Source of the DNA: Methanosarcinales archaeon
Lineage (GTDB): Archaea; Halobacteriota; Methanosarcinia; Methanosarcinales; Methanogasteraceae
Length of the DNA stretch: 47,960 bases
Reading direction: 5' to 3'
NCBI GenBank assembly: GCA_030672605.1
Contig: DAOVGE010000017.1
Coordinates: 1-47,960, forward strand
The translations under genes and the position numbers were made by a program. Under the pieces are notes generated by a model. That model was not told the DNA's origin. It did not search any database and was given only the letters and a program-made list of their open reading frames with translations. Shown in pieces: positions 3,714 to 44,478 of the stretch (position 1 is its first letter; every line of letters begins with the position of its first letter).

Positions 3714-4754
3714 ATGTCATGCGTTGTTGGAATTGATCCCGGCACAAAGAGCTTCGATCTCCTCGGGCTGGACTGCGATTGTGACGAGATCGTCCTTGAC
3801 GTAGCGATACCCACGAAACAAATCGCAGCAGACCCTGAATCGGTGACCGATGAGCTGGAGCGGCTTGACCCGGATCTCATAGTCGGACCCTCCGGGTACG
3901 GGATACCTGTCAAGAAAATCTCAGATATAACGCCCATGGACATTTTTCTGATGTCGCTTGTCTCAGAGGGTGATAAAAAATCGATACTCGGAATGCGCGG
4001 GTTAATCGAGACGCTCAAGAAACACAATCTTCCAGTCTATTTCATCCCGGGGGTCATACACCTTCCAACGGTTCCATCCTATCGAAAGATCAACAGAATT
4101 GACATGGGCACCCCTGACAAGCTCTGCTCATGTGCGCTCGCAGTTCGGGATCAGGCAACAAGGCGCAACATCGATTATGACCAGACGTCGCTTGTATTGC
4201 TGGAGATTGGTTTTGCGCACACCGCTGCAATCGCTGTTGATTCGGGGCGGGTTGTGGACGGCATCGGCGGGAGCAGTGGTGGAATCGGCTTCCTCTCGAT
4301 GGGTGCGATGGACTCTGAACTCGCATACATGCTCCGCGGGTTTCCCAAAGAGTTTGTAACAAGCAGGGGTGCACGAACGCTTGCCGGAAGCAAGATTGCG
4401 CCGGAGGAACTTGTGCTGCACGATTATGCGTGGCGTGCATTCGCAGAGGGTGCAGTCAAGAATGTTTGCGCACTCATAGCAACACTCGCACCGGAAGAGG
4501 TGCTGCTCTCTGGCAGATTGTCAAAGATTCCTGAGATTAAGGCGGACTTGACCGAACGACTGGAGCTGATTGCGCCTGTTCGGTTGGTGAATGGGTTAAA
4601 CGGCGTAAGGATCGCAAAGGAATCGGCACAGGGCGCTGCGTTGATCGCAAGTGGGCTTGCACATGGGCGCTACGAGAGCCTCGTAGAGGCGATGAAGATC
4701 ACTGAAGCGCGTGGCACTGTCCTCGATTATGCGAATCTGGATACTCAGCAGTAG
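3714..4754 (+). CDS. DUF1464-like ASKHA-fold (sugar kinase/Hsp70/actin superfamily) protein
   Basis: 346-aa ORF. The N-terminal VVGIDPGTKSFDL phosphate-1-type motif and a later GIGGSSGGIGF glycine-rich motif fit the ASKHA fold. The family name is from memory. Confidence 0.55.
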   Translation: MSCVVGIDPGTKSFDLLGLDCDCDEIVLDVAIPTKQIAADPESVTDELERLDPDLIVGPSGYGIPVKKISDITPMDIFLMSLVSEGDKKSILGMRGLIETLKKHNLPVYFIPGVIHLPTVPSYRKINRIDMGTPDKLCSCALAVRDQATRRNIDYDQTSLVLLEIGFAHTAAIAVDSGRVVDGIGGSSGGIGFLSMGAMDSELAYMLRGFPKEFVTSRGARTLAGSKIAPEELVLHDYAWRAFAEGAVKNVCALIATLAPEEVLLSGRLSKIPEIKADLTERLELIAPVRLVNGLNGVRIAKESAQGAALIASGLAHGRYESLVEAMKITEARGTVLDYANLDTQQ

Positions 4755-4955
4755 CACGATTGTGGCACAATCGTGACATTACAATAGCACACCATTCACA
4801 ATCCTCTATATATCAGTGTCACGCCAATCTATCTTTTACCACGAGTATTTTGGCAGTAGAAATCCGCTCGCGTGGGACTACACAATGGGGTAACAAAGGC
4901 GTGGGCGCAGCCCGGAAATCGGGCTGCGTTGTCATAATTCAAAGGAGTAACGACT

Positions 4956-14705: not shown

Positions 14706-15449
14706 TTAGAACTCGAGATACGGCGATTGCGAGAGTACCTTTATACCATCGTTTGATAGCTCCAGAACACGCACCTGATTGACGATAGTCGAGCCACGGT
14801 GCTTCGCCACATGGACTGAGCGCTGGAGGTTATTTCCCACACGCACCATGCCTATGTTTGTAATCGAGTCGGCGCTGTATGCAATGATCTCATCCACGCC
14901 ATAGATTACGCCGGTTGCGATGATGCATGTGGCAGGAGCCTTCCGCAGGACGTTGAAGACGTCGTCCACCAGACTCTTCAGCCGATACTTCGAATCTATA
15001 GCCAGAAACAGCGCTTCAAGCGAGTCAATGAAGATTAAATCCGGATTTACAGTCTCTATCTTGTTTTCGAGCAGTTTCTTGAAGCTCTTGATCAGTTCGT
15101 CCGGCGCAATCTCCACGGTCTTCTGCAACCGCAGATCCGGATCCGCTATATCGACAAAGGTTACGTCTCCTTCCTCTTCGAGTTTCCAGAAATCCCAGCC
15201 GAATGATGTGTACCACTCTCTCCGTATATACTCGGTCTCCTCTGATGTGAGGACGACCATCCCTTTCTTACCACGTTTAGCACCTTCATGTATGAATTCT
15301 CCACCGAAAACCGTTTTGCCGGTGCCTGTTCCGCCGATGACCACATTCACGGACCCCTTAAAGAAACCGCCTCCAAGTAGCTCATCGTATCCGGGTATGC
15401 CAGTCTCCACACGTTCCATTACTCGTTCATCATGCATCATGATCACCAC
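14706..15449 (-). CDS. KaiC/RecA-superfamily ATPase (single domain, intact P-loop)
   Basis: GIPGYDELLGGGF...VIGGTGTGKT (Walker A) and LIFIDSLEAL (Walker B-like). Confidence 0.8.
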   Translation of the reverse strand: MVIMMHDERVMERVETGIPGYDELLGGGFFKGSVNVVIGGTGTGKTVFGGEFIHEGAKRGKKGMVVLTSEETEYIRREWYTSFGWDFWKLEEEGDVTFVDIADPDLRLQKTVEIAPDELIKSFKKLLENKIETVNPDLIFIDSLEALFLAIDSKYRLKSLVDDVFNVLRKAPATCIIATGVIYGVDEIIAYSADSITNIGMVRVGNNLQRSVHVAKHRGSTIVNQVRVLELSNDGIKVLSQSPYLEF

Positions 15450-31135: not shown

Positions 31136-32332
31136 TCAGATCTCGTAGATCACATCGATTCCTCTGCGCACCTTCGAGATCTCGTTGCCCATGCGGAACA
31201 ACTTGTTTTTATCAATTTTATACCCGCATAGTTGTTCTACGAACCAGAGCGTCTTCAGATGATCTTCTGCGCTCAATTTCCAGTCCGCTTTGTCCTCCGG
31301 ATAATCCATGCCACCAGCGTAGGCGAGCAGTTCGAGGCGTGCAGTCTCGCTGATCCAGCCGATCTCGACGTAATAATCGAGAATGCTCGGCAGATTGTTC
31401 GGTCCGACCAGTTCGAGCAGAAAATCGAGCAGTTCCATCGCAACCATGACCTGGTCTGCCTCGTTTCCCACGGAGTTCAGTTTCACGCATGTGGGTGGGG
31501 GCACGATCTCGACCTCGACCTCGGCAGCCCCGAATGCTGCCGCTTTCGCCTCTTCAGCCTCTGCTGCCGCGGTAATGAGATTCTCAACATCACCCTCTAT
31601 TGATGAGATGGTTGTGCGCGTAAAATCGAGACTTGCTGCCAAATCCGATATTTCTGATCTATTACAACCGACTGACTCCTGCAGTCCGTCCAGTCTTCCG
31701 GAAAAATCGGCTTGCTGCGAAAATATCCCTGATACTACATCCCCGACATCAGAGATGACCGAAATCACTTCGTCTGACCGCGCCTCCATCGTTATCATGG
31801 ATACGCCATTCTTTGAGAGCCTCTCCTCGATTTCTTGCAGATTCTTCCTTAGATCGTCGATGTCTGAGCGGTCGATTGCTGGTTCGTTTGCAATTTCCGG
31901 CTCTTCTGATGATGCGGGCATATAGTAAACAGCCTCGGTGAGCTCTGAAAACGCTGCCACAACCTTGTCGACCTGCGTCGCAATCGAGGAAATATCCTCC
32001 CTGATCGCCGCAATCTCGCCGCTAAAATCCTGTCGGGCACTGATGGGCTCGGGTACTGATTCAGTGACCGGTTCCGAAAAATCCGGAGGGGGGAGGGGGG
32101 AATCAAAGAGTTCTTGAGGCATTGTTTCAGCGTCGCCGCTGAGATCTAATTCAGGAGGAACCTCTGCGACCTCGTGCTGAGCGGATGGTGAATCAACGAC
32201 TGTGGGTGGTTGCGAATATTTTGATATTCTACCTCGAAGCTCACCGGTTCTCGTGATTCGCCTCAGAGCCGCACGCAGCACAGATGATATACTATCTTTA
32301 ATCCTGGTGGCTGCAGGAGTTGTCTCATCCAT
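31136..32332 (-). CDS. FlaD/FlaE-domain (archaellum accessory-like) protein with acidic coiled N-terminal region
   Basis: The C-terminal about 110 aa, LLDFLLELVGPNNLPSILDYYVEIGWISETARLELLAYAGG...HLKTLWFVEQL, resembles the archaeal FlaD/E domain. Confidence 0.55.
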   Translation of the reverse strand: MDETTPAATRIKDSISSVLRAALRRITRTGELRGRISKYSQPPTVVDSPSAQHEVAEVPPELDLSGDAETMPQELFDSPLPPPDFSEPVTESVPEPISARQDFSGEIAAIREDISSIATQVDKVVAAFSELTEAVYYMPASSEEPEIANEPAIDRSDIDDLRKNLQEIEERLSKNGVSMITMEARSDEVISVISDVGDVVSGIFSQQADFSGRLDGLQESVGCNRSEISDLAASLDFTRTTISSIEGDVENLITAAAEAEEAKAAAFGAAEVEVEIVPPPTCVKLNSVGNEADQVMVAMELLDFLLELVGPNNLPSILDYYVEIGWISETARLELLAYAGGMDYPEDKADWKLSAEDHLKTLWFVEQLCGYKIDKNKLFRMGNEISKVRRGIDVIYEI

Positions 32333-32368: not shown

Positions 32369-33346
32369 TTAAACGCTTTGGTCTGTTAAGTGCAAAACAC
32401 CAGCCAATTCCGCTCGCAGCTCTCCGAGCGTGGCACACCGCTCGGCACACGCGTTATGCTGGTGGATACTCTCCTCGTTGATCTGTTTGAGCGAGATCAG
32501 GGAATCGTCAGGCAGGCGCGGGAACTCCTTCACGATCGAATGCGCCATCGCGCGGACACAGTCCTCCACAAATCTCGGAGTCCGGTGCGCGACATCAACC
32601 ACCGCCGCCTCATCGGATCGTTTGAGCAGTTCGAATATCGTAGAACTCATTGAGGACTCGATGACGTCGATCAACTTCGCGAGCGGCACATCGTACCGAT
32701 CGTGAACCTCTATAGAGATTGTTCCCCGCCCGCGCTGGTTGTGGGTTGCCATAGGGACTCGGATCAGGAACTGGGCGATCGTGGCGTCGGGAACGCCGAG
32801 CTCGACCAGTTCATTCCTTGCACGGTCCCGCATAATCTCCTGCGCACAAGGGCATGCAGTCATCCCGAGTACCTCCGCGCCAACGAGTTTTCGGACCCTG
32901 ATGTCGCCACCATCCGACCTGATTGCGACCGCCTCTGCGAAGATGTCGACCACGCTCTGGCAGTTCATGTGTGTCACCGGGGTCTCCCGCTTGACCACGT
33001 ATTCGCTCTTCATCTGCACCTCGGCGCGAGATGCATACTCGTGCTTGGTTAAGAGGCGGCGTGCGACAATACCGCACAATTCCTCTATTTCATATACCGG
33101 AGCCTTGACCGCCTCCTCCAAGACCTCATCAATGGTCTCAAAGTTTCTCGAAAGGTTTGCGCCCTTGCGATCTGGCGGCAGGTCCACAAATATGTTAAAT
33201 CTTGCGATGAGTACGATCGGGCGCTTGCCCTTGCGTGCAATCTCAATCAGCTTCTTGACGTCGGTTACGCCAACACGTGTCAGGTTGATCGGGATTGCAG
33301 GTCTGGTTGCCTGAATATCCGGAAGTTCGACCACTGGTAGTTTCAT
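32369..33346 (-). CDS. mptA: GTP cyclohydrolase MptA (FolE2 family; methanopterin pathway)
   Basis: [35 protein letters not shown] and MATHNQRG blocks. The start is taken at Met24 ([10 protein letters not shown]). Confidence 0.8.
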
Positions 33347-33571
33347 GTCAGTCTTCTCCAGTACTGGTGATTCGGTTCTGTGCTGTATGGCGTCAATATA
33401 TAAATCTTGCGGCACCCTGGGTGAAATTTTTTGATTTCTTCTGGCCGGTTGAAAATATAATGAACCGTAGATTAACGCGAATGAACGCGGATTTGTTCAT
33501 AGGTATCTGCGTAAATCTGCGGAGGATGAGATTGAAGGAAATCATTGCAGCCAGAAAATATTAAAAAATCG

Positions 33572-33761
33572 CTGGTTCTGTTGTTTTCTGTGGTCGATGG
33601 CAGTAGCCATTACGTGTGTAGAAATCGCGGGCGTCACTCCTTCGTCTCTGCGTCTCTGCGACTTTGCGTTAAATCAGAGAAACGCAAAGACGCGAGGGCG
33701 CGAAGAATGAAAAATCACTTATTCCGGCATCTTTTGAAAACCACAGAATCCGTTAGAATCA
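33572..33761 (-). mobile_element. MITE family 1, copy D (inverted, with internal extra segment)
   Basis: ctggttctgttgttttctgtggtc ... aaaaccacagaatccgttagaatca. Flanks are AAAAAATCG / GAAAAATCG (8 of 9 identical). Confidence 0.8.
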
Positions 33762-33780
33762 GAAAAATCGCCCCGGGGTA

Positions 33781-33911
33781 CATGCTCAATAACTTGTTAT
33801 AGGAACCACGAGATTACACAGATTTGCACAAGATTTCTGTGTTAATCTTGTGTAATCTCGTGAAATCTCGTGGTTTTATATGTGAATATCCACACAATAT
33901 TGGGTAAGTAC
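33781..33911 (+). repeat. Family-3 repeat, full copy
   Basis: catgctcaataacttgttatagg, then CACGAGATTaCACAGATTTgCACAAGATTT, then ctgtgttaatcttgtgtaatctcgtg ... cacaatattgggtaagtac. Confidence 0.75.
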
Positions 33912-34039
33912 ACCTATAGATAGTGTCAACCCAACACTGGCGTTATATCGATCACACATCAGCACAAGCCCATGCGAATGCCAATTTTACAGGCAGGGAC
34001 TGCTCCCGTGTTCGGATTCGCTGACATGCGCAGATGGAC

Positions 34040-34047
34040 TTTTATAT
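34040..34047 (+). promoter_or_regulatory. Possible TATA box of the KaiC-like/GTPase operon
   Basis: ttttatat lies about 50 bp upstream of ATG 34096. A GGTG Shine-Dalgarno-like box lies about 9 nt before the ATG. Confidence 0.35.
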
Positions 34048-34095
34048 GAAGACGTACAATCAACTAAATGAGCGAATGAAGCAGGTGCGGTTTCT

Positions 34096-34788
34096 ATGGC
34101 ATACAATCTCGGCATACCGAAACTAGATGATTTGATCGGGGATATCAGGGGTGGTACGAACATCATGATGATTGGTCCCCCTATGAGTGGGAAAGAGGAT
34201 CTCATAAACATCATCGCATACCGGGGGTTGGTCGATCGCGATGCTGCCGTAATCGTCTCGACGCGGGAGCCAGGAAACAACGTGCTCGAATGGTTCGAAC
34301 GGCGTAACCTGAACATCTCGATGGATAGAATTGGGATTGTGGACTGTGTTACGCGCACCCTCGGGTTTGCCGCACCCGATACCGAGAACATCAAGATGGC
34401 GTCAAGCCCGGTTGATCTCACAGGCATTGGTGTCAAGATCAGCCAGTTCTTTGAACATTTCTGGATGGAGATGCAGCTCAGGGAGACGAGACTGTGCATC
34501 AACTCGCTATCAACGATTCTGATGTACTCGAACCTGCAGACCGTGTTTCGGTTTTTGCACGTCTTCACAGGTCGTATCAAGGCAGCAAATGCGCTCGGCG
34601 TCTACGTGATTGAGGAGGGGATGCACGATGCGCAGACGATTGTGACATTGAAGCAGTTGTTTGATGGCATGATTGAGATAAGGGAAGGGGATGATGGTTA
34701 TCAAATACGGGTTGTCGGGCTCACGCCGAAGCCAACGCCGTGGTTTGATTATGAAGTCAATGGTGTAGATGTTGTACTACGGGGTTAG
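34096..34788 (+). CDS. KaiC/RecA-like protein with degenerate Walker A
   Basis: GIPKLDDLIGDIRGGTNIMMIGPPMSGKE shows the KaiC-type N-terminal layout, but the P-loop ends GKE instead of GK[ST]. Confidence 0.75.
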   Translation: MAYNLGIPKLDDLIGDIRGGTNIMMIGPPMSGKEDLINIIAYRGLVDRDAAVIVSTREPGNNVLEWFERRNLNISMDRIGIVDCVTRTLGFAAPDTENIKMASSPVDLTGIGVKISQFFEHFWMEMQLRETRLCINSLSTILMYSNLQTVFRFLHVFTGRIKAANALGVYVIEEGMHDAQTIVTLKQLFDGMIEIREGDDGYQIRVVGLTPKPTPWFDYEVNGVDVVLRG

Positions 34789-35966
34789 TGAATATGATAG
34801 AGACAGGGATACCGAAGCTAGATGGTTATTTACACGGAGGTGTTCCGGAAGGAAGATCTCTTGTGTACTATACGTACCCCGGCGTAGCTGGTGATGTTTT
34901 CGGGATGCAGACGATATGCCACGCCACATCGAACGGTATACTGGGAGTCTATGTCGCATCCAGTACCGATCCGCAGATGATCCGGGATCAGTTCAGCGAG
35001 TTCGGGTGGGCTACTGAGGACTATAATGGCAGGTTCATTGTGGTGGACGCGTTCTCAGGGCTGATCGGCGCGGATTCGCAGGAACGGTATGTCGTGTCCG
35101 ATCCGGAGGATGTCAACAGCCTGACCCAGTGTATCAAGAAGGTGATGGAAGAGATGAGCGAACCCGGAATCATCGTCTTCGAATCACTCTCGACGATCAT
35201 GGACCTGTGCGGGGAGTCTGAGACCCTTGATGCGCTTGAGGAGTGGAGCCAGTACGCAATGCTCTACGATCATGCGCTGGTTTACAATTTCACGGCATGG
35301 CCCTATTCCGAAGAGACGCTGCTGCACGTGAAGGAGAATGTTTGCAATTCCGTCATCTCTGTTGGTGGAATTACTGGAGACGTTATTTTCGGGCAGTATT
35401 TTGGGGTGCTGAAGGTGGATTGGACGGACATTGCACGGAAAAGCACGTTGTTCAAGGTTTTGAAGCCCGGCGGCATACGCGCGTACATCCCGAAGATACT
35501 GGTCACGGGACCGTTTGATGCTGGCAAATCAACGTTCGTACACGCACTCTCCAACAGGGCGATCTCAGTGGATCGGCTTGGCACAACGATCGCGCTTGAT
35601 CATGGGCATGTGGATCGCAAAGGGTTTGCCGCAGATATATTCGGAACCCCTGGGCAGGAACGGTTCGATCCGATCGTGAAACTGCTCAGCGGAGAGGCAA
35701 TGGGTATATTCCTCCTCCTCGACTCGACAAACACCACTGATTTTAAGAGGGGCAAGCGCATGCTTGAAATCACGGAGTCGTTCGGTCTGCCGGTTGTGAT
35801 CGTCGCAAACAAGCAGGACATGTCAGAAGCGCTCACGCCGGAGGAGATCAGAAGAGAACTGGATATGCCAGCGAATGTACAGATCATGCCCGCGGTTGCA
35901 GCCACCGGAGAGGGCGTCTTCGAGGCATTCGAGACACTGGTCGATATGGTAATGGAGGTGGACTGA
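34788..35966 (+). CDS. Fusion protein: degenerate KaiC-like domain plus small GTPase (CvnD/MglA-like, COG2229-type)
   Basis: The N-domain GIPKLDGYLHGGVPEGRSLVYYTYPGVAGDV has lost the P-loop Lys and Thr. The C-domain has G1 GPFDAGKST, G3 FGTPGQ and G4 NKQD. The GTG start overlaps the upstream stop, with ATG 34794 as an alternative. Confidence 0.8.
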   Translation: MNMIETGIPKLDGYLHGGVPEGRSLVYYTYPGVAGDVFGMQTICHATSNGILGVYVASSTDPQMIRDQFSEFGWATEDYNGRFIVVDAFSGLIGADSQERYVVSDPEDVNSLTQCIKKVMEEMSEPGIIVFESLSTIMDLCGESETLDALEEWSQYAMLYDHALVYNFTAWPYSEETLLHVKENVCNSVISVGGITGDVIFGQYFGVLKVDWTDIARKSTLFKVLKPGGIRAYIPKILVTGPFDAGKSTFVHALSNRAISVDRLGTTIALDHGHVDRKGFAADIFGTPGQERFDPIVKLLSGEAMGIFLLLDSTNTTDFKRGKRMLEITESFGLPVVIVANKQDMSEALTPEEIRRELDMPANVQIMPAVAATGEGVFEAFETLVDMVMEVD

Positions 35967-35967
35967 G

Positions 35968-36330
35968 ATGTCGACATCAGAAATGCTCGGAAAAGTGCTC
36001 GCCGGTCTCGGAAAGGTTGGAGAGATTGAGGCGAGTGCGATATCAACACGGGACGGGCTCCTCATGAATGCGGATATGCACGCCGCTGGCGATCCGGAGA
36101 CTTTTGTTGCAATGTCGGCAACGATGCTCGGCGCAGCAGAGACCGCAACATCCGAACTGGGCAAGAGTGTGCCGAACCGGGTAATCGTGGAGACCGACGA
36201 CGGGAAATTGATATGCATGGGCGCAGGACCAAAAGCGCTAGTGGTTGTGATGACCGCACCGGATGCCGGGCTCGGTCTGGTGCTTGTAGAGATGGCGAAA
36301 GCCGCAGAAAAGATCGAGAGACTGATATGA
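35968..36330 (+). CDS. Roadblock/LC7 (MglB/CvnB-like) protein
   Basis: 120 aa. LAGLGKVGEIEASAISTRDGLLM...VIVETDDGKLICMGAGPKALVVVM is the typical Roadblock pattern. Confidence 0.8.
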   Translation: MSTSEMLGKVLAGLGKVGEIEASAISTRDGLLMNADMHAAGDPETFVAMSATMLGAAETATSELGKSVPNRVIVETDDGKLICMGAGPKALVVVMTAPDAGLGLVLVEMAKAAEKIERLI

Positions 36331-36536
36331 AACCTTTAATCAACATCGGGAAGAACGGAGTTACTGACCAGGTCATTGATGAGATCAGAGAGCAGATGAA
36401 TGGAAAAAGCGAAATCAAGATACGGATCCTCAAAAATGCGCCCGATAGCGCGTCTGTTGTCGCAGAAGAGGTTGCATCGAGGACCGGGTTCAAACTTGGG
36501 GATGTGCGCGGGCACACTGCGGTTCTTGCACGGTGA
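36327..36536 (+). CDS. YhbY/CRS1-type (CRM domain) RNA-binding protein
   Basis: 69 aa, MKPLINIGKNGVTDQVIDEIREQM...IKIRILKN. An ATGA overlap joins it to the Roadblock gene. Confidence 0.7.
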   Translation: MKPLINIGKNGVTDQVIDEIREQMNGKSEIKIRILKNAPDSASVVAEEVASRTGFKLGDVRGHTAVLAR

Positions 36537-36689
36537 TTGACATTCACTAACACGAAACGCAATCTATAGAAATCAGGTATGCGTCGGAGGGGGTGTCCGG
36601 GAGTCCGGCTTGTTGACGCCGGACGCATGGTGATTTTGGGAGTCGGGGGGATTTTGTGGAGACTTTTATTATCTTCGGGAATGGGTTCG

Positions 36690-36753
36690 GAAAACCACAT
36701 AGGACGCGGGGAACGCAGCAACTCTCTGTGCCCTCCGCGTCCTCTGTGGTTAA
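36690..36753. repeat. Family-5 palindromic repeat
   Basis: aaccacataggacgcggggaacgcag / ctctctgtgccctccgcgtcctctgtggtt inverted arms. Confidence 0.65.
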
Positions 36754-36798
36754 TCTTCTTTACCATAACCAGACACTGTCTGAAAATCAAGTGATTTG

Positions 36799-36873
36799 TC
36801 ACCGCGGAGGTTCGCGGAGGTTCGAGATCGTTTTCAACCCTCTGCGTGGCTATGCGCACTCTGCGGTGGAATC
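36799..36873. repeat. Family-5-like palindromic repeat
   Basis: caccgcggaggttcgcggaggttcgag ... ctctgcgtggctatgcgcactctgcggtg. Confidence 0.55.
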
Positions 36874-36948
36874 TACTGGTATGGCGATTTCACTGGAACA
36901 ATCGACCGTGCCCCATAACCCAAGTCACCCGGAAGAGATTAAAAATCC

Positions 36949-37131
36949 TGATTCTGATGGATTCTGTGGTTTCCAATCTTTGCGCCCTTGCGTCATCGCG
37001 TCTTTGCGTTCATCTGATCTAACGCAAGGTCGCAAAGGTATGAGAGACGCAAAGTTGAGAGAGATGCGCCCGCGTTTTTTTGCATACGCGAGGGAGCTAC
37101 CGTTAGCGACCACAGAAAACGTCAGAACCAG
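36949..37131 (+). mobile_element. MITE family 1, copy E
   Basis: tgattctgatggattctgtggtttcc ... gaccacagaaaacgtcagaaccag. Flanks are TAAAAATCC / TAAAAAGCC (8 of 9 identical). Confidence 0.85.
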
Positions 37132-37170
37132 TAAAAAGCCACATGTTGTGATGGTCGCTATCATGCCAGA

Positions 37171-37273
37171 CATTCGTGCAATTCGTACCATTCGTACCAT
37201 TCGTGTTCTAATGCTGCTGATTTTAAACAAAATATATAACGCAAATTTCACGAATGCCACGAATACCACGAAT
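37171..37273. repeat. Family-2 palindromic repeat directly upstream of kinase 1
   Basis: cATTCGTGcaATTCGTAccATTCGTAccATTCGTG, a loop containing aaaatatataac, then ttCACGAATgcCACGAATacCACGAAT. Confidence 0.8.
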
Positions 37274-37302
37274 TTGACTCTCACAGAGTTGTGGGGGGAT
37301 TT

Positions 37303-40140
37303 ATGAACAGTTTCGGATCGGCTGATAATAATAACAGCACGATCGTCCGCAAAGCCGCAGTCTCGATTCTCTTCGGGTTACTCGGCTTTGCAGTGAACTT
37401 CTACCCGATTGATTTCGTCTTTTATGGCTCTTATAAGATGAGCTTCCTGCTCGGTCTCGTATTTCCCATGCTGATAACGCTTGCGTGGGGCTGGCGATAC
37501 GGACTCCTCTCAGCGCTTGCCGGCGGCTGCCAGACGATGTGGATACTCTGGATGCCGGGAAGCGGCTACGGACCGTTCGTATCAGTGCCGCCGTTCACGC
37601 TCTGGATCGTCTGGCTCGGATGGTTCTCACGCACCAGCTACAACCGCAGATACGGAATCTATATCGGAGAGCTGATATTTCGCATCTTCAATACAGCCCT
37701 GCTCTACACCGCCTTCAGGTGGGTCTTCACACTGAACGTGCCCCCCGCAAACACAGTAATGCCGCTTGCGGTAACACACTCGATCGTCTTCAAGGAGGTG
37801 GTGAACGGGCTTTTCATCCTCTTTCTCGCACAAATGATCCTCCAGTCAAACACGGTCAGGCGACTCTTCAGACTGGCGGATGGCGAGGCAGACCCGCGTC
37901 ACACATACATCTACACAAACGCAATCATCCTCGGCAGCATGATGCTGATCTTCCTTGTATGCGAGGTGCATCTCTGGAACGACTGGGCGCCTGATTTCCG
38001 GAATGCCGCCCGCATACTCGGCATGCTATTTCTGATCCTAATAGGGATCCTCTGCACATACCTGGCAGCAGACGCCTTCGCACGGGCGAGGACCATTGAG
38101 ATTCGCCTGGCAAGTGAGCGCATCGAGCATTTGAACGGCGTACTGAAAGCCATCAGAAACGTGAACCAGTTGATAGTGGTTGAGAAGGAGAGGGACCGCC
38201 TTCTTGAGGGTGCGTGCGAGGTCTTAATCGAAGCGAGGGACTACGAAGCGGCATGGCTTGGATTCCTGAAGAGTGACGGGACGTTTGCAACAGTCGAGGG
38301 ATCCGGTTTTCCGGAAGAGGTCTCCTGCTTCTGCAAGCACGTGATGCACGACGACTGCCCGACTTGTATCAGAGATGCGCTCGCCCAAAAGGAGCCTCTG
38401 GTCATGGACCGGTCAAAAGACTGCGGAGATTGCTTCTTAAGAGAGCGATGCGCCGGCAAAGAATCCATAATCCTCCGTGTCGAGCACGATTGTAGACTCT
38501 TCGGGCTGCTTGCCATATTGCTCACATCTGATGCCACCGCAGACGATGAGGAGAAGGAACTCCTGAAAGAGGTTGCAGGAGATATGGCGTTCGCACTCCA
38601 CAACATGGAACTCGAAGAGGCACGAAAAATTGCGGAGAAGACGCTTGCAGAGAGTGAGCGGAAGTATCACCTGCTTGCAGACAACTCGATTGATTGTATC
38701 TGGCAGCTGAATCGCAACCTCGAATTCACGTATGTCAACCCTGCCATTCTCCGGATGTTCGGGTTCACACCGGATGAATGGATCGGAAGTTCGTTATCAG
38801 AATACTGTTCTCCTGAAGCACTGGAGTTTATGTCAGGTCTGGCAAAAGCGGAGCTTGCTAAGGGTCAGGAATTAACTATTGTGATATTTGAAACTCAGTT
38901 GTTTCATAAAAACGGTGGAACGGTTCCTGTCGAGATAACTAGCAGGGTGTTGTTCGACGAGGATGGAAATCCGGCAGGGTTTCAGGGGTCTGCCAGAGAC
39001 ATCACCGAGCGCAAAGAGGCTGAGGATGCACTCCGGGAGAGTGAGGCGCAATTCCGCAACCTGCTTGAGTGCGTCCCGAACGTGGCTGTGTATGGGTACG
39101 GACCCAATGGCACAATCCACTACTGGAATAAGGCGAGTGAGGCAGTGTACGGCTACACAGGAGGGGATGCGATCGGCAAAAACATTTTTGACCTGATAAT
39201 TCCGCCAGAGCTACGAGATGTGATGCGTGAGGCGATCGAGCATGGCGCTCAAACAGGGGAGATGCCAGCGCCATCCGAACTGTCACTCATGCGCAAGGAT
39301 GGTGTGCTTGCTCCCGTGTTCTCGAGCCACGTCGTTTTGAAGCGGCACGGACGCGAGCCCGAACTCTTCAGCGTCGATGTTGATCTGGTCGAGCGCAGGT
39401 ATGTTGAAGCGCGGTTGAGGCGGGCGGTTGATGACCTCAAGCGTTCAAATGAAGAACTGGAGCAGTTCGCGTATGTCGCATCTCATGACCTGCAGGAGCC
39501 GCTGCGCATGGTCTCGAGTTACATGCAGCTTCTGAAGCGGCGCTACGAGGGTAAGCTTGATTCTGATGCCGACGATTTTATAGAGTTTGCCGTGGACGGC
39601 GCAAGCCGCATGCAGACGCTGATTCAGGATTTGCTGATTTATTCGCGTGTGGGCACGCGTGGCAAGCCGTTTGAGCCAACCAACTGCGAGGACGTGCTTG
39701 GGCAGGTGCTCATGAATCTGGCGATCGCTATTGATGAGAGCGGTGCTGTTGTGACTCATAATCCGCTGCCAACGGTTGCGGCTGATTCCTCGCAACTTGC
39801 ACAGCTCTTCCAGAACCTGATCGGGAATGCAATCAAGTTCCATGGCGATGAGCCTCCGCGTGTTCATGTCGCAGCAGAGCAAAAAGGCGACGAGTGGGAG
39901 TTCTCGGTCGCGGACAATGGAATCGGGATCTCGCCTGAGTTCTTTGAGCGCATATTTGTGATATTCCAGCGCCTGCACGGCAGGGACGAGTATTCGGGAA
40001 CCGGGATCGGTCTTGCGGTCTGCAAGAAGATTGTGGAGAGGCACGGCGGCAGGATGTGGGTGGAATCAGAGCAGGGCAAGGGGACGACGTTCTACTTCAC
40101 GATTCCTGCAGTCGCAACAGATGGTGGTGTTTGGGAATGA
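37303..40140 (+). CDS. Membrane sensor histidine kinase 1 (multi-TM N-domain, Cys-rich GAF-like, 2 PAS, HisKA, HATPase_c)
   Basis: About 8 TM helices; a GAF-like block NGVLKAIRNVNQLIVVEKERDRLL; PAS blocks; H-box FAYVASHDLQEPLR; N/G boxes NLIGNAIKFH and GTGIGLAVCKKIVERHGG. GTG 37291 is an alternative start. Confidence 0.9.
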   Translation: MNSFGSADNNNSTIVRKAAVSILFGLLGFAVNFYPIDFVFYGSYKMSFLLGLVFPMLITLAWGWRYGLLSALAGGCQTMWILWMPGSGYGPFVSVPPFTLWIVWLGWFSRTSYNRRYGIYIGELIFRIFNTALLYTAFRWVFTLNVPPANTVMPLAVTHSIVFKEVVNGLFILFLAQMILQSNTVRRLFRLADGEADPRHTYIYTNAIILGSMMLIFLVCEVHLWNDWAPDFRNAARILGMLFLILIGILCTYLAADAFARARTIEIRLASERIEHLNGVLKAIRNVNQLIVVEKERDRLLEGACEVLIEARDYEAAWLGFLKSDGTFATVEGSGFPEEVSCFCKHVMHDDCPTCIRDALAQKEPLVMDRSKDCGDCFLRERCAGKESIILRVEHDCRLFGLLAILLTSDATADDEEKELLKEVAGDMAFALHNMELEEARKIAEKTLAESERKYHLLADNSIDCIWQLNRNLEFTYVNPAILRMFGFTPDEWIGSSLSEYCSPEALEFMSGLAKAELAKGQELTIVIFETQLFHKNGGTVPVEITSRVLFDEDGNPAGFQGSARDITERKEAEDALRESEAQFRNLLECVPNVAVYGYGPNGTIHYWNKASEAVYGYTGGDAIGKNIFDLIIPPELRDVMREAIEHGAQTGEMPAPSELSLMRKDGVLAPVFSSHVVLKRHGREPELFSVDVDLVERRYVEARLRRAVDDLKRSNEELEQFAYVASHDLQEPLRMVSSYMQLLKRRYEGKLDSDADDFIEFAVDGASRMQTLIQDLLIYSRVGTRGKPFEPTNCEDVLGQVLMNLAIAIDESGAVVTHNPLPTVAADSSQLAQLFQNLIGNAIKFHGDEPPRVHVAAEQKGDEWEFSVADNGIGISPEFFERIFVIFQRLHGRDEYSGTGIGLAVCKKIVERHGGRMWVESEQGKGTTFYFTIPAVATDGGVWE

Positions 40141-41519
40141 AAAGGATAGTGATCTTCTGTGTTTTGCTATTTATCATCTCAAGCGGATGTGTAACCGAAG
40201 AAAAACCAACCATGGAGAAGAGAACCGGCGTTAATGCGACATCATCCCATAGCCCGGATAGCAAAGTGAACTGGATGGGGCACTGGCTCATGGATCATGA
40301 CCGCGAAACCCTTGTCCGAGAGGTTGCTCAGGACTTCGAGCTAATGAATCCGGATATAGACGTCAATCTCGAATACCCCCAGCAGATAATGGGCGTGCGC
40401 AGCAGGGAGGAGGTAGGCAAATATATTGCCCGGATGATAACGACTGGCGATATGGAATGGGACGTCGTCTGGATAGATGATGTCATCTACCAGTATACCG
40501 CAGAAGAACTGGGTGATCCGGATTGGGGCGAGAAATACCTTGTGAATTTCGAGAATGTAGAAGGTTTCAAGGAAACACAGAAATCGTTCATCATAGATGA
40601 CCCAGTTTATAGAAAACAGACCGGAGGTATTATAGTAGGTCCGTATATCGAGGGTTATTACTATGTGATTTATTATAATAAAGATGTTGCAGAAAAGATG
40701 GGTATCGAAGTGAAGCAATACGGCATGACATTCGGAGATCTGTTGGGGTATGTCAGGGAAGTTGAAGAGTACAACCAGGAGCACAATACGAGTATCGCTA
40801 CAATATATGAAAGCAAAAATTATATAACTACTGAACTATTATTTCAGAACCTCCTTAAATCCGAACTCGGCGATTTTAACGAAGCCAAAGAAGAAACTGG
40901 TTCGGCAGAGAAGAACGCAGCGCTCTTAAAGACTCTTCAGGCTTTTGAAGAGCTGGGGATGTATGATCCATTGATAGATTCCCACAAGAATAATACATGG
41001 TACCAGACCAGGCATCTCGTATTGGACGATGAGTGCCTCTTCTATGTAAATGGAGTCTGGATGTACAGCCACTGGATGAGTATGGACGAGGAACAGACGA
41101 GAAAGATGGTTCCTGCCGAACTCCCTGTATTTCAGGAGACCGATTACTATCTCGGAGGTTACATCCCGACATGGGCTGTTATGAAGTACGCTCCGAACAG
41201 GGACGAAGGAATCAGGCTTCTTATGTTCTGGAGCACGCCAATTGTCGCTGAGAAATGGGTGCGCTACGCAAAAGCCCCGACCGGACTGGTTGGTCATCTC
41301 AGCACCTCTGATCAGGCAGATGATGTGTTTACACAGTTTCAGTCGGCAATCACAGACCGGTACGGCGGAAATATCCATTACAGCGCGAATGCAGGCTACA
41401 TCTTCGGAGAAGAGAACCGGCTTTTACAGGATGATCTGAATGAGAAGATCATACAGCTGCTGGATGGTGAGATGACCGCAGAGCAGGCTTATGAAGAGAT
41501 TATGGGGCTGGTTGAATGA
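40137..41519 (+). CDS. Lipoprotein, solute-binding-protein-like (SBP paralogue 1)
   Basis: Signal/lipobox MKRIVIFCVLLFIISSGC, and about 460 aa, the size of a type-1 extracellular solute-binding protein. ATGA overlaps join it to the genes on both sides. The family call is tentative. Confidence 0.6.
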   Translation: MKRIVIFCVLLFIISSGCVTEEKPTMEKRTGVNATSSHSPDSKVNWMGHWLMDHDRETLVREVAQDFELMNPDIDVNLEYPQQIMGVRSREEVGKYIARMITTGDMEWDVVWIDDVIYQYTAEELGDPDWGEKYLVNFENVEGFKETQKSFIIDDPVYRKQTGGIIVGPYIEGYYYVIYYNKDVAEKMGIEVKQYGMTFGDLLGYVREVEEYNQEHNTSIATIYESKNYITTELLFQNLLKSELGDFNEAKEETGSAEKNAALLKTLQAFEELGMYDPLIDSHKNNTWYQTRHLVLDDECLFYVNGVWMYSHWMSMDEEQTRKMVPAELPVFQETDYYLGGYIPTWAVMKYAPNRDEGIRLLMFWSTPIVAEKWVRYAKAPTGLVGHLSTSDQADDVFTQFQSAITDRYGGNIHYSANAGYIFGEENRLLQDDLNEKIIQLLDGEMTAEQAYEEIMGLVE

Positions 41520-43057
41520 AGCGCGAACACAAGGGTAGGGAAAACAGGCGTCATCTCAGTCTGAGCTGGAAGATAATTCTGCTTACCATGGTTCCTTTCC
41601 TTATGGTCCTGATAGTCTTAAGCGCACTAACCATCCATGATAAGACCCAGAACGAGCGGGATCTCGTACTGAATAGAATCGATTCGTACGTCAATTTGCT
41701 TGAAAGCGGCGATCTGAGTTTTGAGAGTGTTCGGCAAAAGGAAAAATTGGAAAAGATGTTCGATGAGCGGGTTATATCGTCTGAGCTCATCGGGCGGGGC
41801 GGAAGCGTCGTCTATGCCGCAGGCACCCCGGAACATGAGGTTGATCCGAAACTGATCGAGACTGCGTTCGGGGGTTTCACGGTGACCTACACTATATATC
41901 ACGAAACTCCGGTTCTCATCTCGTTGTATCCGATTATCGTCGAAGAGACTGTAGTTGGAGTCCTTCACCTCGAACTCTCGTTTGAGCGGTCAAATGAGAG
42001 AATCAAGAAATACACGTTCTTTATTCTCCTGCTGAACGCTTACGGTCTGGTTGCTTCGTTCCTGCTGGTCCGGTTCCTCTCGCAGCGAATCGTGATAAGC
42101 CGGATTGAGGCGTTGACTGACATGTCCTCTGAGATCGGCAAAGGAAACCTGCAACACCGGTTGGATATCCGCTCAAACGATGAGCTTGGAATCCTTGCAT
42201 CGGCGTTCAACGATATGGCAGGGGAACTCGGGGAACGAAAGCGGCAACTGGACGAGGAGAGGAGCAAGGTTCTTGATAAGGTGGAGGAACTGGAAGAGCA
42301 GATCACCCGGCGTGAAACTGCGGAGGAAGAGCTGAAACGAACTGTAACTGACCTCAGGCGCTCCAACGCCGAACTCGAGCAGTTCGCGTATGTCGCATCT
42401 CATGATCTACAGGAGCCGCTGCGCATGGTATCAAGCTACATGCAGCTTCTGAAGCGGCGATACGTTGGCAAACTCGATTCTGATGCAGACGATTTCATCG
42501 GGTTTGCCGTAGACGGGGCAAAACGGATGCAGGTGCTGATCAATGACCTGCTGGTCTATTCGCGTGTTGGAACACGCGGGAAGCCGTTTGAACTGACAAA
42601 CTGCGAGGACGTGCTTAGTCAGGTGCTCGTGAATCTGGAAGTTGCTATCGATGAGAGCGGTGCAGTGGTTACTCACGATTTGCTGCCAACGGTTGCGGCT
42701 GATTCCTCGCAACTTGCACAGCTCTTCCAGAACCTGATCGGAAACGCAATCAAGTTCCATGGCGAGGGTGCGCCGCGTGTTCATGTCGCAGCAGAGCAGA
42801 AAGATGGTGAATGGCTATTCTTTGTTGCTGATAATGGCATCGGAATTGGGGATGAGTTCTTTGAGCGCATCTTTGTGATATTCCAGCGTCTGCACGGCAG
42901 GGACGAGTATTCGGGAACCGGGATCGGTCTTGCGGTCTGCAAGAAGATCGTGGAGCGGCATGGTGGCAGGATGTGGGTTAAATCAGAGCAGGGCGAGGGG
43001 GCGACGTTCTACTTCACGATTCCTGCGGTCGCAACAGAAGGCGGTGTTCAGGAATGA
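41516..43057 (+). CDS. Sensor histidine kinase 2 (TM, periplasmic domain, TM, HAMP, HisKA, HATPase_c)
   Basis: TM1 WKIILLTMVPFLMVLIVLSALTI, TM2 FFILLLNAYGLVASFLLVRFL, HAMP ...SNDELGILASAFNDMAGEL, and H-box FAYVASHDLQEPLR. The transmitter is nearly identical to that of kinase 1. Confidence 0.9.
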   Translation: MKREHKGRENRRHLSLSWKIILLTMVPFLMVLIVLSALTIHDKTQNERDLVLNRIDSYVNLLESGDLSFESVRQKEKLEKMFDERVISSELIGRGGSVVYAAGTPEHEVDPKLIETAFGGFTVTYTIYHETPVLISLYPIIVEETVVGVLHLELSFERSNERIKKYTFFILLLNAYGLVASFLLVRFLSQRIVISRIEALTDMSSEIGKGNLQHRLDIRSNDELGILASAFNDMAGELGERKRQLDEERSKVLDKVEELEEQITRRETAEEELKRTVTDLRRSNAELEQFAYVASHDLQEPLRMVSSYMQLLKRRYVGKLDSDADDFIGFAVDGAKRMQVLINDLLVYSRVGTRGKPFELTNCEDVLSQVLVNLEVAIDESGAVVTHDLLPTVAADSSQLAQLFQNLIGNAIKFHGEGAPRVHVAAEQKDGEWLFFVADNGIGIGDEFFERIFVIFQRLHGRDEYSGTGIGLAVCKKIVERHGGRMWVKSEQGEGATFYFTIPAVATEGGVQE

Positions 43058-44478
43058 GAAGGGTGGTGTTCTTCTGTGTTTTATTATTCCTCATCTCAAG
43101 CGGATGCGTAACAGAAGAAAAACCAACCATAGAGAAGAGAACCGACGTTAATCTGACATCAGCTCATGGTTCGGATAAAGAAGTGAACTGGATGGGGCAC
43201 TGGCTTTCCGAATATGGTCGAGAGACCCTTGTGCAGGAGGTTTTTCAGGACTTCGAGCTGATGAATCCAGATATCGATCTCAATCTCAAATATCCACAGC
43301 AAATCATGGGACTGCGTAGTAAACAGGAGACGGCTAAATATATTGCCCGTATGATAACGACCGGAAATATCGAGTGGGATGTCGTCTGGATGGATGATGG
43401 CATATACCAGTTTACCGCAGAAGAACTGGGCGATCCGGGATGGGGGGAAAAATACCTTGTGAATTTTGAGGATGTGGAAGGTTTCAAGAAAACACAGAAA
43501 TCGTTCATCATAGATGACCCTGTTTACAGAAAGCAGACCAGTGGCATTATAGTGGGTCCGTATATCGAGGGTTATTACTATGTGATCTATTATAATAAAG
43601 ATGTTGCAGAAAAGATGGGCATCGAAGTGAAGCAATATAACATGACCTTCGACGATCTTCTGGGGTATGTCAGGGAAGTCGAAGAGTATAACCATGGGCA
43701 CAATACGGATATCGCCGCATTCTATGAAAGCGAAAATTGGATAACTACTGAAATATTATTCCAGAACCTCTTTAAATCTGAACTCGGAGATTTTAGCGAA
43801 GTCAAAGAAGAGACAGGCTCGGAAGAGAAGAACGCAGCTCTATTAAAGACTCTTCAGGCTTTTGAAGAGCTTGGAAAATACGATCCATTGATAGACGCCC
43901 ACAAGAATAATACATGGTACCAGACCCGGCGTCTCGTATTGGACGATGAGTGCCTTTTCTATGTAAACGGCATCTGGATGTACAGCCACTGGATGGGGAT
44001 AGACCAGGAAAAGACGGCAAAGATGGTTCCTGCCAGATTGCCCGTATTTCAGGAGACTGACTACTATCTGGGAGGGTACATCCCGACATGGGCTGTTATG
44101 AAGGACGCTCCGAACAGGGAAGAAGGAATCAGGCTTCTAATGTTCTGGAGCACGCCACTTGTCGCTGAGAAATGGGTGCGCTACGCAAAAGCCCCGACCG
44201 GCATGGTGGGTCATGTGAGTACATCTGATTCGGCAGATGACCCGTTTGAGCAATTCCAGGCAGCAATCACTGAAAAATACGGCGGAAATGTCCATTACAG
44301 CGCGAATGCGGGCTACATCTTCGGAGAAGAGAACCGACTTTTACAGGATGATCTGAATAAGAAGATCATACGGCTGCTGGATGGCGAGATGACCGCAGAG
44401 CAGGCTTATGAAGAGATTATGGGGCTGGTTGAATGGAGAGTGAACATGTGGGGGGACAACGATGAGTACGTGGAGTAA
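43054..44478 (+). CDS. Lipoprotein, solute-binding-protein-like (SBP paralogue 2)
   Basis: MRRVVFFCVLLFLISSGCVTEEKPTIEKRT... is collinear with paralogue 1 throughout. It has 13 extra C-terminal codons because the ancestral TGA is TGG here. Confidence 0.6.
   Translation: MRRVVFFCVLLFLISSGCVTEEKPTIEKRTDVNLTSAHGSDKEVNWMGHWLSEYGRETLVQEVFQDFELMNPDIDLNLKYPQQIMGLRSKQETAKYIARMITTGNIEWDVVWMDDGIYQFTAEELGDPGWGEKYLVNFEDVEGFKKTQKSFIIDDPVYRKQTSGIIVGPYIEGYYYVIYYNKDVAEKMGIEVKQYNMTFDDLLGYVREVEEYNHGHNTDIAAFYESENWITTEILFQNLFKSELGDFSEVKEETGSEEKNAALLKTLQAFEELGKYDPLIDAHKNNTWYQTRRLVLDDECLFYVNGIWMYSHWMGIDQEKTAKMVPARLPVFQETDYYLGGYIPTWAVMKDAPNREEGIRLLMFWSTPLVAEKWVRYAKAPTGMVGHVSTSDSADDPFEQFQAAITEKYGGNVHYSANAGYIFGEENRLLQDDLNKKIIRLLDGEMTAEQAYEEIMGLVEWRVNMWGDNDEYVE

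Follow-up and report, generated by a model that had tools for sequence, protein, structure and literature searches.

The closest described systems to the operon reported here are the MglA/MglB pairs of Myxococcus xanthus and Thermus thermophilus and the archaeal group 4 MglA proteins, in which a small GTPase of the Ras superfamily is encoded beside a Roadblock/LC7 protein. MglB acts on MglA as GAP (GTPase-activating protein) and/or GEF (guanine nucleotide exchange factor). We have analysed four co-directional genes, g1 to g4, at positions 34096-36536 of a 47,960-nucleotide stretch of DNA (hereafter the window: contig DAOVGE010000017.1 of assembly GCA_030672605.1) from a methane-oxidising archaeon of clade ANME-2c (anaerobic methanotrophic archaea 2c). 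Our data indicate that the operon probably specifies an archaeal GTPase switch of the MglA/MglB type with a pseudo-ATPase as its scaffold, in which the GTPase is covalently fused to an inactivated KaiC domain and is encoded beside both a Roadblock protein and a second KaiC-fold protein.

To our knowledge, archaeal Ras-like GTPases and KaiC-like proteins (many of the latter inactivated) are abundant and have been proposed as signalling hubs, and almost all of them are uncharacterised. The module described here unites the two covalently, together with a Roadblock protein, in at least five archaeal orders, including ANME-2c and ANME-2d. Conservons of Streptomyces likewise hold a Roadblock protein (CvnB) and a GTPase of the GTPGQ type (CvnD) in one operon, of which a genome may carry several paralogous copies. 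Groups 2-5 of MglA are defined by GTPGQ in the G3 motif and by a Thr that replaces the Arg finger in G2, and the MglB proteins coupled to them carry an Asp-Gly (D-G) pair (Wuichet & Søgaard-Andersen 2015, PMC4316618). The same survey found archaeal group 4 MglA to be nearly confined to methanogens, did not find conserved neighbours for it, and gave NxFD as the G4 motif of the conservon GTPase (group 2). Fusions of inactivated KaiC ('iKaiC') to signalling domains are a theme already recognised (Makarova, Galperin & Koonin 2017, as cited in PMC5847659). A literature search found no paper on a KaiC–GTPase fusion, on DUF7504 or on DUF7090, and no searchable paper joins iKaiC with a small-GTPase fusion and Roadblock pairing; this agrees with a preliminary description of the operon, made from the letters of the window, which knew of no characterised system with this architecture, although the fusion may already be listed in that 2017 survey by Makarova and colleagues, which covers KaiC-like proteins and their inactivated forms.

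The KaiC–GTPase fusion

The four genes are tightly packed on the + strand, and Pfam profile searches identify all four proteins. The gene coordinates of the preliminary description were confirmed, and the motifs it quoted (GPPMSGKE, PGVAGDV, GPFDAGKST, FGTPGQ and NKQD) proved exactly placed by direct counting. The genes and their principal motifs are as follows.

34096-34788 (+): g1, 230 amino acids (aa), free-standing degenerate KaiC/RecA-fold protein of the DUF7504/DUF7090 subfamily
34174-34197 (+): Walker A remnant of g1, GPPMSGKE; Lys retained, Ser/Thr replaced by an acidic residue, second Gly variable among orthologues
34788-35966 (+): g2, 392 aa from GTG 34788 or 390 aa from ATG 34794, inactivated-KaiC–GTPase fusion
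34878-34898 (+): dead Walker A of the KaiC-like domain of g2, PGVAGDV, opposite GPGTGKT of PH0284
35493-35966 (+): MglA-type small GTPase domain of g2, residues 236-392, matched by Arf/Ras profiles
35508-35534 (+): G1 of g2, GPFDAGKST
35640-35657 (+): G3 of g2, FGTPGQ (FGTPGQERF spans 35640-35666)
35808-35819 (+): G4 of g2, NKQD
35968-36330 (+): g3, 120 aa, Roadblock/LC7 protein (MglB-like)
36327-36536 (+): g4, 69 aa, N-terminally shortened YhbY/CRM RNA-binding protein

The product of g2 matches Pfam KaiC, PF06745, above the cut-off at residues 4-230 (E = 5.6e-18) and Arf/Ras at residues 236-388 (1e-11 to 1e-13). A word-indexed search returned more than 1,165 homologues of 389-392 aa, and an exhaustive HMMER search over 50%-identity representatives gave 111 clusters at 50% identity with E < 1e-30, most of them full-length proteins of 370-415 aa with identity down to 24-27%. 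The closest homologues (95-98% identity) belong to Candidatus Methanogasteraceae (ANME-2c), and the fusion is known from ANME-2c, Methanoperedens and Methanosarcinaceae, from Thermoplasmata and Ca. Altiarchaeota and from Methanocalculus sp. MC3, among others, with those of Methanobacteriaceae recovered through a genome scan; Methanosarcinales and Methanomicrobiales are both represented. The databases label these proteins 'GTP-binding protein', 'ATPase domain-containing protein', 'KaiC' or 'recombinase RecA'. That the fusion is a frameshift or an assembly artefact has a negligible probability and is refuted by the occurrence of full-length fusions of 370-415 aa in more than 1,000 sequences, including Methanocalculus sp. 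MC3; the full-length proteins come from NCBI, JGI, ENA and Logan assemblies. The survey of homologues and neighbourhoods thus upholds the fusion as genuine, and it is conserved and widespread in archaea.

When g2 is aligned with the solved KaiC-like ATPase PH0284, YPGVAGDV is set exactly against GPGTGKT, so that the PGVAGDV segment does lie at the Walker A position, as had been proposed. In an alignment of 74 diverse family members (24-95% identity) this position reads [DE]PG[VI][ED]xx[PV]F, and none of the 74 has a Lys or a Thr there. The catalytic Glu pair is absent as well (SS(T) replaces EE, and the pair is not conserved family-wide), and the Walker B residue is Glu. Because all 74 diverse members are without the Walker A Lys and Thr and without a conserved Glu pair, we read the N-domain as an ancient inactivated KaiC domain. 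In the AlphaFold2 (AF2) model of g2 (mean predicted local distance difference test score, pLDDT, 92.5; predicted template-modelling score 0.88) the N-domain superposes on the RecA-superfamily ATPase PH0284 with a template-modelling (TM) score of 0.86 and a root-mean-square deviation of 2.3 Å; the PH0284 crystal entry has six chains. This single-domain KaiC/RecA fold with a PH0284-like structure is shared with the archaeal KaiC-like ATPases and iKaiC proteins. The model also contains a strand at residues 227-238 that leads out of the KaiC domain and into the first G-domain strand, and this continuity indicates that g2 would form a rigid two-domain body.

The GTPase domain and its Roadblock partner

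The G domain of g2 is matched by Pfam Arf (7.6e-13), Pfam Ras (1.1e-11) and TIGR00231 (2.5e-14). Its G1 (GPxxAGK[ST]), G3 (FGTPGQERF) and G4 (NKQD) motifs are invariant among 13 g2 orthologues, and the G2 region, LGTTIALD, has a Thr in place of the Arg finger, with the TT conserved. The product of g3 matches Robl_LC7, PF03259 (2e-10; 40.7 bits against a cut-off of 23), and contains an Asp-Gly pair (STRDGLL). All three features of group 2-5 MglA and its coupled MglB, namely GTPGQ, the G2 Thr and the D-G pair, are therefore present in g2 and g3. Like MglA/MglB and archaeal group 4 MglA, the pair has a G3 that is without the usual Asp, a G2 with two Thr and a Roadblock partner with a D-G pair, and unlike group 1 MglA, g2 has no intrinsic Arg finger. 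What sets it apart from MglA, a single-domain protein of about 160-200 aa, is that the G domain occupies residues 236-392 of a 392-aa two-domain protein, being fused to a 230-residue inactivated KaiC domain, with a second KaiC-fold protein alongside.

A Roadblock gene adjoins the fusion in nearly all loci examined: in ANME-2c, ANME-2d, Methanosarcinaceae, metagenome-assembled genomes (MAGs) from tar biofilms, Thermoplasmatales, Methanobacteriaceae, the ANME-2c paralogue and Altiarchaeota. The view that the GTPase is intact and related to MglA/CvnD (GTPGQ in G3, TT in G2) therefore holds, and Roadblock is its near-constant neighbour. We regard the core as an MglA/MglB-type switch on what appears to be a pseudo-KaiC scaffold, that is, as a variation on a known switch and not as a wholly new kind of system.

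A Roadblock protein with a GTPGQ-type GTPase is also the CvnB/CvnD pairing, and the preliminary description called the operon conservon-like: a sensory switch with KaiC-like domains as input in the place of CvnA, with the GTPase as the switch itself and with YhbY as its possible RNA-directed output. The analogy of the Roadblock–GTPase pair stands, several paralogous modules can occur in one genome as they do for conservons, and genes with V4R, PAS or histidine kinase (HK) sensor domains lie close by at some loci. Membership in the conservons does not stand, since Pfam finds no homologue of the membrane histidine kinase CvnA or of the DUF742 protein CvnC among the four operon proteins, where KaiC-fold proteins occur instead, the host is an archaeon, and G4 is NKQD and not the NxFD of group 2 CvnD. 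Nothing places the KaiC-like domains in a sensor slot: they have no recognisable ligand or nucleotide site for sensing, and their look is instead that of a scaffold or of a unit for oligomerisation. The kinase nearby is not conserved, and YhbY is no part of the module outside Methanosarcinales and stays with g1 once g2 and g3 are lost. On balance we think a conservon-like sensory switch unlikely.

The free-standing KaiC-fold protein

The product of g1 matches DUF7504 (2e-27, 97.2 bits) and DUF7090 (2.6e-16, 60.4 bits), both with a cut-off of 27, and Pfam KaiC below threshold (7.6e-5). Searched against the PDB, the profile of its family matches KaiC (8.7e-11) and SSO2452 (1.4e-7), and the AF2 model (pLDDT 81) has a KaiC fold, for which Foldseek finds PH0284 and KaiC CI (TM 0.7-0.79, and 0.77-0.79 where the KaiC/RecA core fold was tested), with FlaH too among the structural neighbours. 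The g1 family aligns with the family of g2 N-domains over 229 columns (hhalign probability 99.6%, E = 2.5e-24), and we take g1 to be a paralogue of the g2 N-domain.

The Walker A motif GxxxxGK[ST], the catalytic Glu pair and the Walker B Asp, by which a KaiC/RecA ATPase is recognised, are not found in g1. Alignments across Methanosarcinales give the P-loop as G-P-P-M-S-[GRSK]-K-[DE], and in the Methanocalculus orthologue (APPLSGAE) the Lys is gone too. The Walker B Asp is replaced by Asn (CINSLS here; the same in ANME-2c, ANME-2d and Methanosarcinaceae), and RE stands at the position of the Glu pair after strand 2. The claim that both KaiC-like units are degenerate at their catalytic motifs is thus borne out, by the 74 of 74 g2 members and by the K[DE] of g1. 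The further claim that this degeneration is specific to the operon needs to be narrowed. The other KaiC gene of the window, at 14706-15449 (-), does keep GGTGTGKT (Pfam KaiC 9.4e-40), but the free KaiC-like proteins that partner the fusion in Methanobacteriaceae, and in a paralogous module of ANME-2c, have a canonical GPPKTGKS and an intact Walker B Asp, and the motif decay of g1 is specific to its subfamily.

The most conserved segments of g1, ASSPVDLTGIGVKISQFFE, INSLSTILMYSNLQTVFRFLHVFTGR, GMHD...LKQLFDGMIEI and PKPTPWF, lie outside the ATPase motifs, and because the strongest conservation falls there, the pattern suggests that an interaction surface, rather than an active site, has been conserved. 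This conservation is equal with or without g2 at the locus.

Elp4/5/6 and Rad55-Rad57 are rings or pairs of RecA-fold subunits that serve as a nucleic-acid-binding or mediator platform, and g1 and g2 resemble them as paralogues of RecA/KaiC fold whose ATPase motifs are lost or partial. The match of g1 to PAXNEB/Elp4 (E = 1.3e-3) is below the Pfam threshold, and ring formation or RNA binding could be carried over to g1 only by analogy. The RadA paralogues offer another explanation, in which the KaiC-fold proteins would be aRadC/Rad55-like mediators of recombination or repair; the source annotations read 'recombinase RecA / RAD55 family ATPase', the g1 family profile matches SSO2452, and a gene for an HhH-GPD glycosylase follows YhbY in many ANME-2c loci. 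We find this very improbable, as the names are automatic family labels for COG0467, the ATPase motifs that RadA-paralogue activity requires are degenerate, and a Ras-like GTPase fusion with Roadblock pairing has no precedent in recombination.

Gene order across archaea

The order g1-g2-g3-g4 was found again at about 60 independent loci and is therefore not due to chance. In ANME-2c, in ANME-2d and in one Methanosarcinaceae MAG the order is g1-g2-g3-YhbY, and the genes of the first two groups overlap or almost abut. Other lineages arrange the module differently: 'Halobacteriota' MAGs from tar biofilms have g1-g2-g3, V4R genes and a second g3-g3-g2(-g3) set without YhbY; Methanocalculus has overlapping g1-g2; Thermoplasmatales have g3-g2-KaiC-like; Methanobacteriaceae have g3-g2-KaiC-like-KaiC-like with PAS or HK genes on the flanks; and Altiarchaeota have g2-g3-prefoldin-FtsY. 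A free KaiC-like gene adjoins the fusion in most lineages surveyed and in Methanocalculus, in at least five orders and in differing gene orders. What recurs in these arrangements is thus a core of the fusion with Roadblock, usually joined by a free KaiC-fold paralogue.

Genes with sensor domains (V4R, PAS/HK) are attached to the module variably. The V4R domain is a small-molecule-binding fold related to TRAPPC3. In the tar-biofilm MAGs, runs of V4R genes lie between duplicated fusion/Roadblock modules (locus L010, 7611-9248; locus L011, 3995-4561 and 7539-8201), which suggests that some versions of the module have inputs that sense ligands; the V4R paper (PMC2253512) makes no mention of GTPases or Roadblock. 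A second module was seen in ANME-2c (L023, 3767-7883, of Ca. Methanogaster GCA_003194445.1), with a fusion 36% identical to g2, in the order V4R, MJ0207-family, a 165-aa protein of no known kind, Roadblock, fusion and KaiC-like, the last with an intact GPPKTGKS, and without YhbY. Two long-contig MAGs of Methanobacteriaceae have the fusion gene divided into 2-3 open reading frames (L018, 5923-7178; L019, 5658-6817), probably by sequencing frameshifts and possibly by pseudogenisation.

Loss of the GTPase–Roadblock cassette

A profile scan of metagenomes yielded 59 loci with sufficient downstream sequence. The arrangement g1-g2-g3-YhbY is present in 43 of the 59, and g1-YhbY without g2 and g3 in 13; the remaining three are one without YhbY, one with a truncated g2 and one with a deletion scar (L051). 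In the scar, at 4695-4936 of its locus, what lies between g1 and YhbY, both intact, is a fusion of ~45 codons from the beginning of g2 with the final ~38 codons of g3. The four named Methanosarcinaceae genomes examined, of Methanosalsum zhilinae, Methanolobus, Methanomethylovorans and Methanohalophilus, have YhbY immediately after g1 and lack both g2 and g3, and their g1 orthologues (62-68% identity) keep all motifs. The linkage of g1 to YhbY is maintained while the flanking genes differ between lineages.

Since L051 keeps remnants of g2 and g3 between g1 and YhbY, the four-gene state must have come before the two-gene state; we conclude from this direct evidence that the four-gene state is ancestral in this clade and that the GTPase/Roadblock cassette was lost by deletion. 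The cassette is dispensable in Methanosarcinales, with g1–YhbY as the deeper linkage.

These results bear on a further explanation, that the transcript carries two unrelated and uncoupled units, a housekeeping RNA or ribosome pair (g1-YhbY) and an independent g2-g3 switch inserted, or merely located, between them. The persistence of g1-YhbY without g2-g3, the occurrence of g2-g3 elsewhere without YhbY and at times without a g1-type gene, and the conservation of g1, unchanged by the presence or absence of g2, all fit it. On the other side, g1 and the g2 N-domain are paralogues, and the free KaiC-like gene that accompanies the fusion in at least five orders, in varied gene orders, argues for a partnership of the g1-type protein with g2. 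The close packing of all four genes in ANME-2c and ANME-2d, and the L051 scar, which puts the four-gene state first, also speak against it. We hold this explanation to be possible, though doubtful.

YhbY

In E. coli, YhbY associates with 50S precursors. The product of g4 matches CRS1_YhbY, PF01985 (2.6e-15; 56.9 bits against a cut-off of 27), at positions 16-84 only of the 84 in the profile, has the GxxG loop (IGKNGVT) and falls below the TIGR00253 equivalog cut-off. In the alignment it is without the N-terminal helix alpha-1, having 69 aa compared with the 84-86 aa of YhbY in other Methanosarcinales and in E. coli, and a homologue search gave 22 matches, all of them short ANME-2c forms. The short YhbY (window 36327-36536) is kept within ANME-2c at 70-94% identity (L003-L007), and its shortening coincides with a gene start shifted onto the Roadblock stop codon. 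The HhH-GPD DNA glycosylase gene that follows YhbY in many ANME-2c loci also does so in one Methanosarcinaceae MAG (L003-L007, L026 and L034-L041 in all) and is not present in the window.

The link of YhbY to the module is confined to Methanosarcinales, where YhbY stays with g1 after deletion of g2-g3. The proposal that YhbY is the RNA output of the GTPase therefore needs to be changed; an RNA-directed output, if there is any, would belong to g1/YhbY and not to the GTPase as such.

Proposed mechanism

KaiC-like proteins generally oligomerise. We propose that the KaiC-fold units of g1 and g2 would assemble together as a platform, not as ATPases, that a Roadblock dimer would bind the G domain and set its GTP/GDP state as GAP and/or GEF, and that the nucleotide state would alter the binding or assembly of the platform. 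Because the g2-g3 cassette sits between g1 and YhbY and is deletable without the loss of either, it may be read as an optional GTP-dependent regulatory layer over a g1-centred function, which would probably be tied to YhbY, that is, to RNA or the large ribosomal subunit.

Several observations weigh against a switch on a pseudo-ATPase scaffold linked to YhbY. The Walker A Lys of g1 is kept in Methanosarcinales, so that g1 could still bind nucleotide. Methanocalculus has g1-g2 without an adjacent Roadblock, Altiarchaeota have g2-Roadblock without an adjacent free KaiC-like gene, and one locus (L043, 2036-3463) has g1-g2-YhbY without Roadblock, with g2 ending 34 nt before YhbY. YhbY itself is probably a single-copy housekeeping gene, and its adjacency could be synteny inherited in one order instead of a functional link; in Methanosarcinaceae the spacing between g1 and YhbY is 69-250 nt, and YhbY may have a promoter of its own there.

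A more specific form of the mechanism, which we offer as speculation with a small chance of being right, is that g1 and the g2 N-domain would form a hetero-oligomeric pseudo-KaiC ring bearing MglA-type G domains, and that the GTP state set by Roadblock would gate YhbY-dependent maturation of the large subunit, or another RNA transaction, in methane-metabolising Methanosarcinales. A eukaryotic system of comparable logic is that of the Rag GTPases with Ragulator, in which a GTPase joined to Roadblock-fold domains controls growth and translation. The likeness is one of analogy only: a platform without catalytic activity permanently carries a Ras-like G domain, the regulators have a Roadblock fold and there is a possible link to translation. 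In Rag the platform is the Roadblock domain itself, whereas here it is a KaiC fold, and no homology is implied beyond the G and Roadblock domains. If the ring and its gating of YhbY were true, the module would parallel, in its logic and in a prokaryote, the control that Rag/Ragulator exerts on translation capacity and would provide a first function for archaeal Ras-like GTPases and inactivated KaiC proteins. If the assembly of g1 with g2 and the link to YhbY are true, they would give a first handle on small GTPases in non-Asgard archaea, and if they are not, a well-defined variant of the MglA/MglB switch is still left. Lineages with and without the cassette between g1 and yhbY constitute a natural experiment, for which Methanocalculus sp. 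MC3 has the g1-g2 pair and Methanolobus and Methanosalsum have g1-yhbY alone.

Junctions, expression signals and surroundings

The junctions of the operon were confirmed in two cases: the g2 stop TGA at 35964-35966 is followed by the g3 ATG at 35968, and g3 and g4 share an ATGA overlap at 36327-36330. Between g1 and g2 the letters at 34786-34790 read tag/gtg, which had been described as a TAGTG stop/start overlap. This part probably needs correction: because g2 begins in all relatives at the equivalent of ATG 34794 (MIETGIP...), that ATG is more likely to be the true start, and the junction would be a 5-nt gap. The non-coding flanks of the operon measure 680 nt on the upstream side and 754 nt on the downstream side, and two candidate expression signals lie in the former.

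34041-34048 (+): TATA-box-like TTTATATG, ~50 nt 5' of the g1 start, read from the sequence
34082-34086 (+): AGGTG, Shine-Dalgarno-like element 5' of g1

We infer that the TATA-like TTTATATG is a candidate sole promoter for the whole operon. A scan of 33400-37300 for sigma-70 promoters and intrinsic terminators, which is ill-suited to archaea, gave sites no commoner than in shuffled sequences, and a candidate terminator hairpin at 36570-36650 was rejected, as it folds no better than shuffles (z = -0.5). PADLOC matched no anti-phage defence model to the operon; it gave weak matches to mad8 (E 4.5e-5 and 1.2e-3) that are at the level of the P-loop only, and a reading as a defence system was rejected on that ground.

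Two genes upstream of the operon, at 31136-32332 (-), is an isolated FlaD/E-domain (Arch_fla_DE) gene of 398 aa, the N-terminal half of whose product is long, acidic and of low complexity; it adjoins a GCHY-1/MptA-type GTP cyclohydrolase gene at 32369-33415, and no other archaellum genes are nearby. This neighbour raises the question of a regulator of polarity or motility like bacterial MglA/MglB, acting on an archaellum or type IV pili with KaiC-fold units related to ArlH; Roadblock genes have been reported in archaeal type IV pilus loci (PMC4858521), and FlaH is among the structural neighbours of g1. Such a role seems improbable to us, given that the FlaD/E neighbour was found in L002 alone, one of the window's nearest relatives, with no match in the other genome loci (L001, L003-L022), that the modules inspected hold no other archaellum or pilus gene and that similarity to FlaH is generic to the KaiC fold.

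Two very stable hairpins, each with the form AACCAC...GTGGTT, flank the operon at 33804-33875 and 36693-36751 (-41 and -38 kcal/mol; z -8.6 and -7.1); chance alone would give 0.04 occurrences of this pattern in the window. Only the nearest relatives (L001, L002, L031-L033) have copies at corresponding positions, and the hairpins may be palindromic elements like repetitive extragenic palindromes (REP) or miniature inverted-repeat transposable elements (MITE), or regulatory sites. An Rfam scan of 33300-37400 gave sub-threshold miRNA-like matches on the hairpins and nothing else. Downstream of the operon, a signalling cluster at 37291-44478 (+) encodes two histidine kinases, first a GAF-PAS and then a HAMP one, each followed by a solute-binding protein. 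The GAF-PAS histidine kinase (37291-40140, 949 aa) has an N-terminal membrane region and begins 754 nt downstream of the operon, and the cluster is conserved beside the operon in the nearest relatives only.

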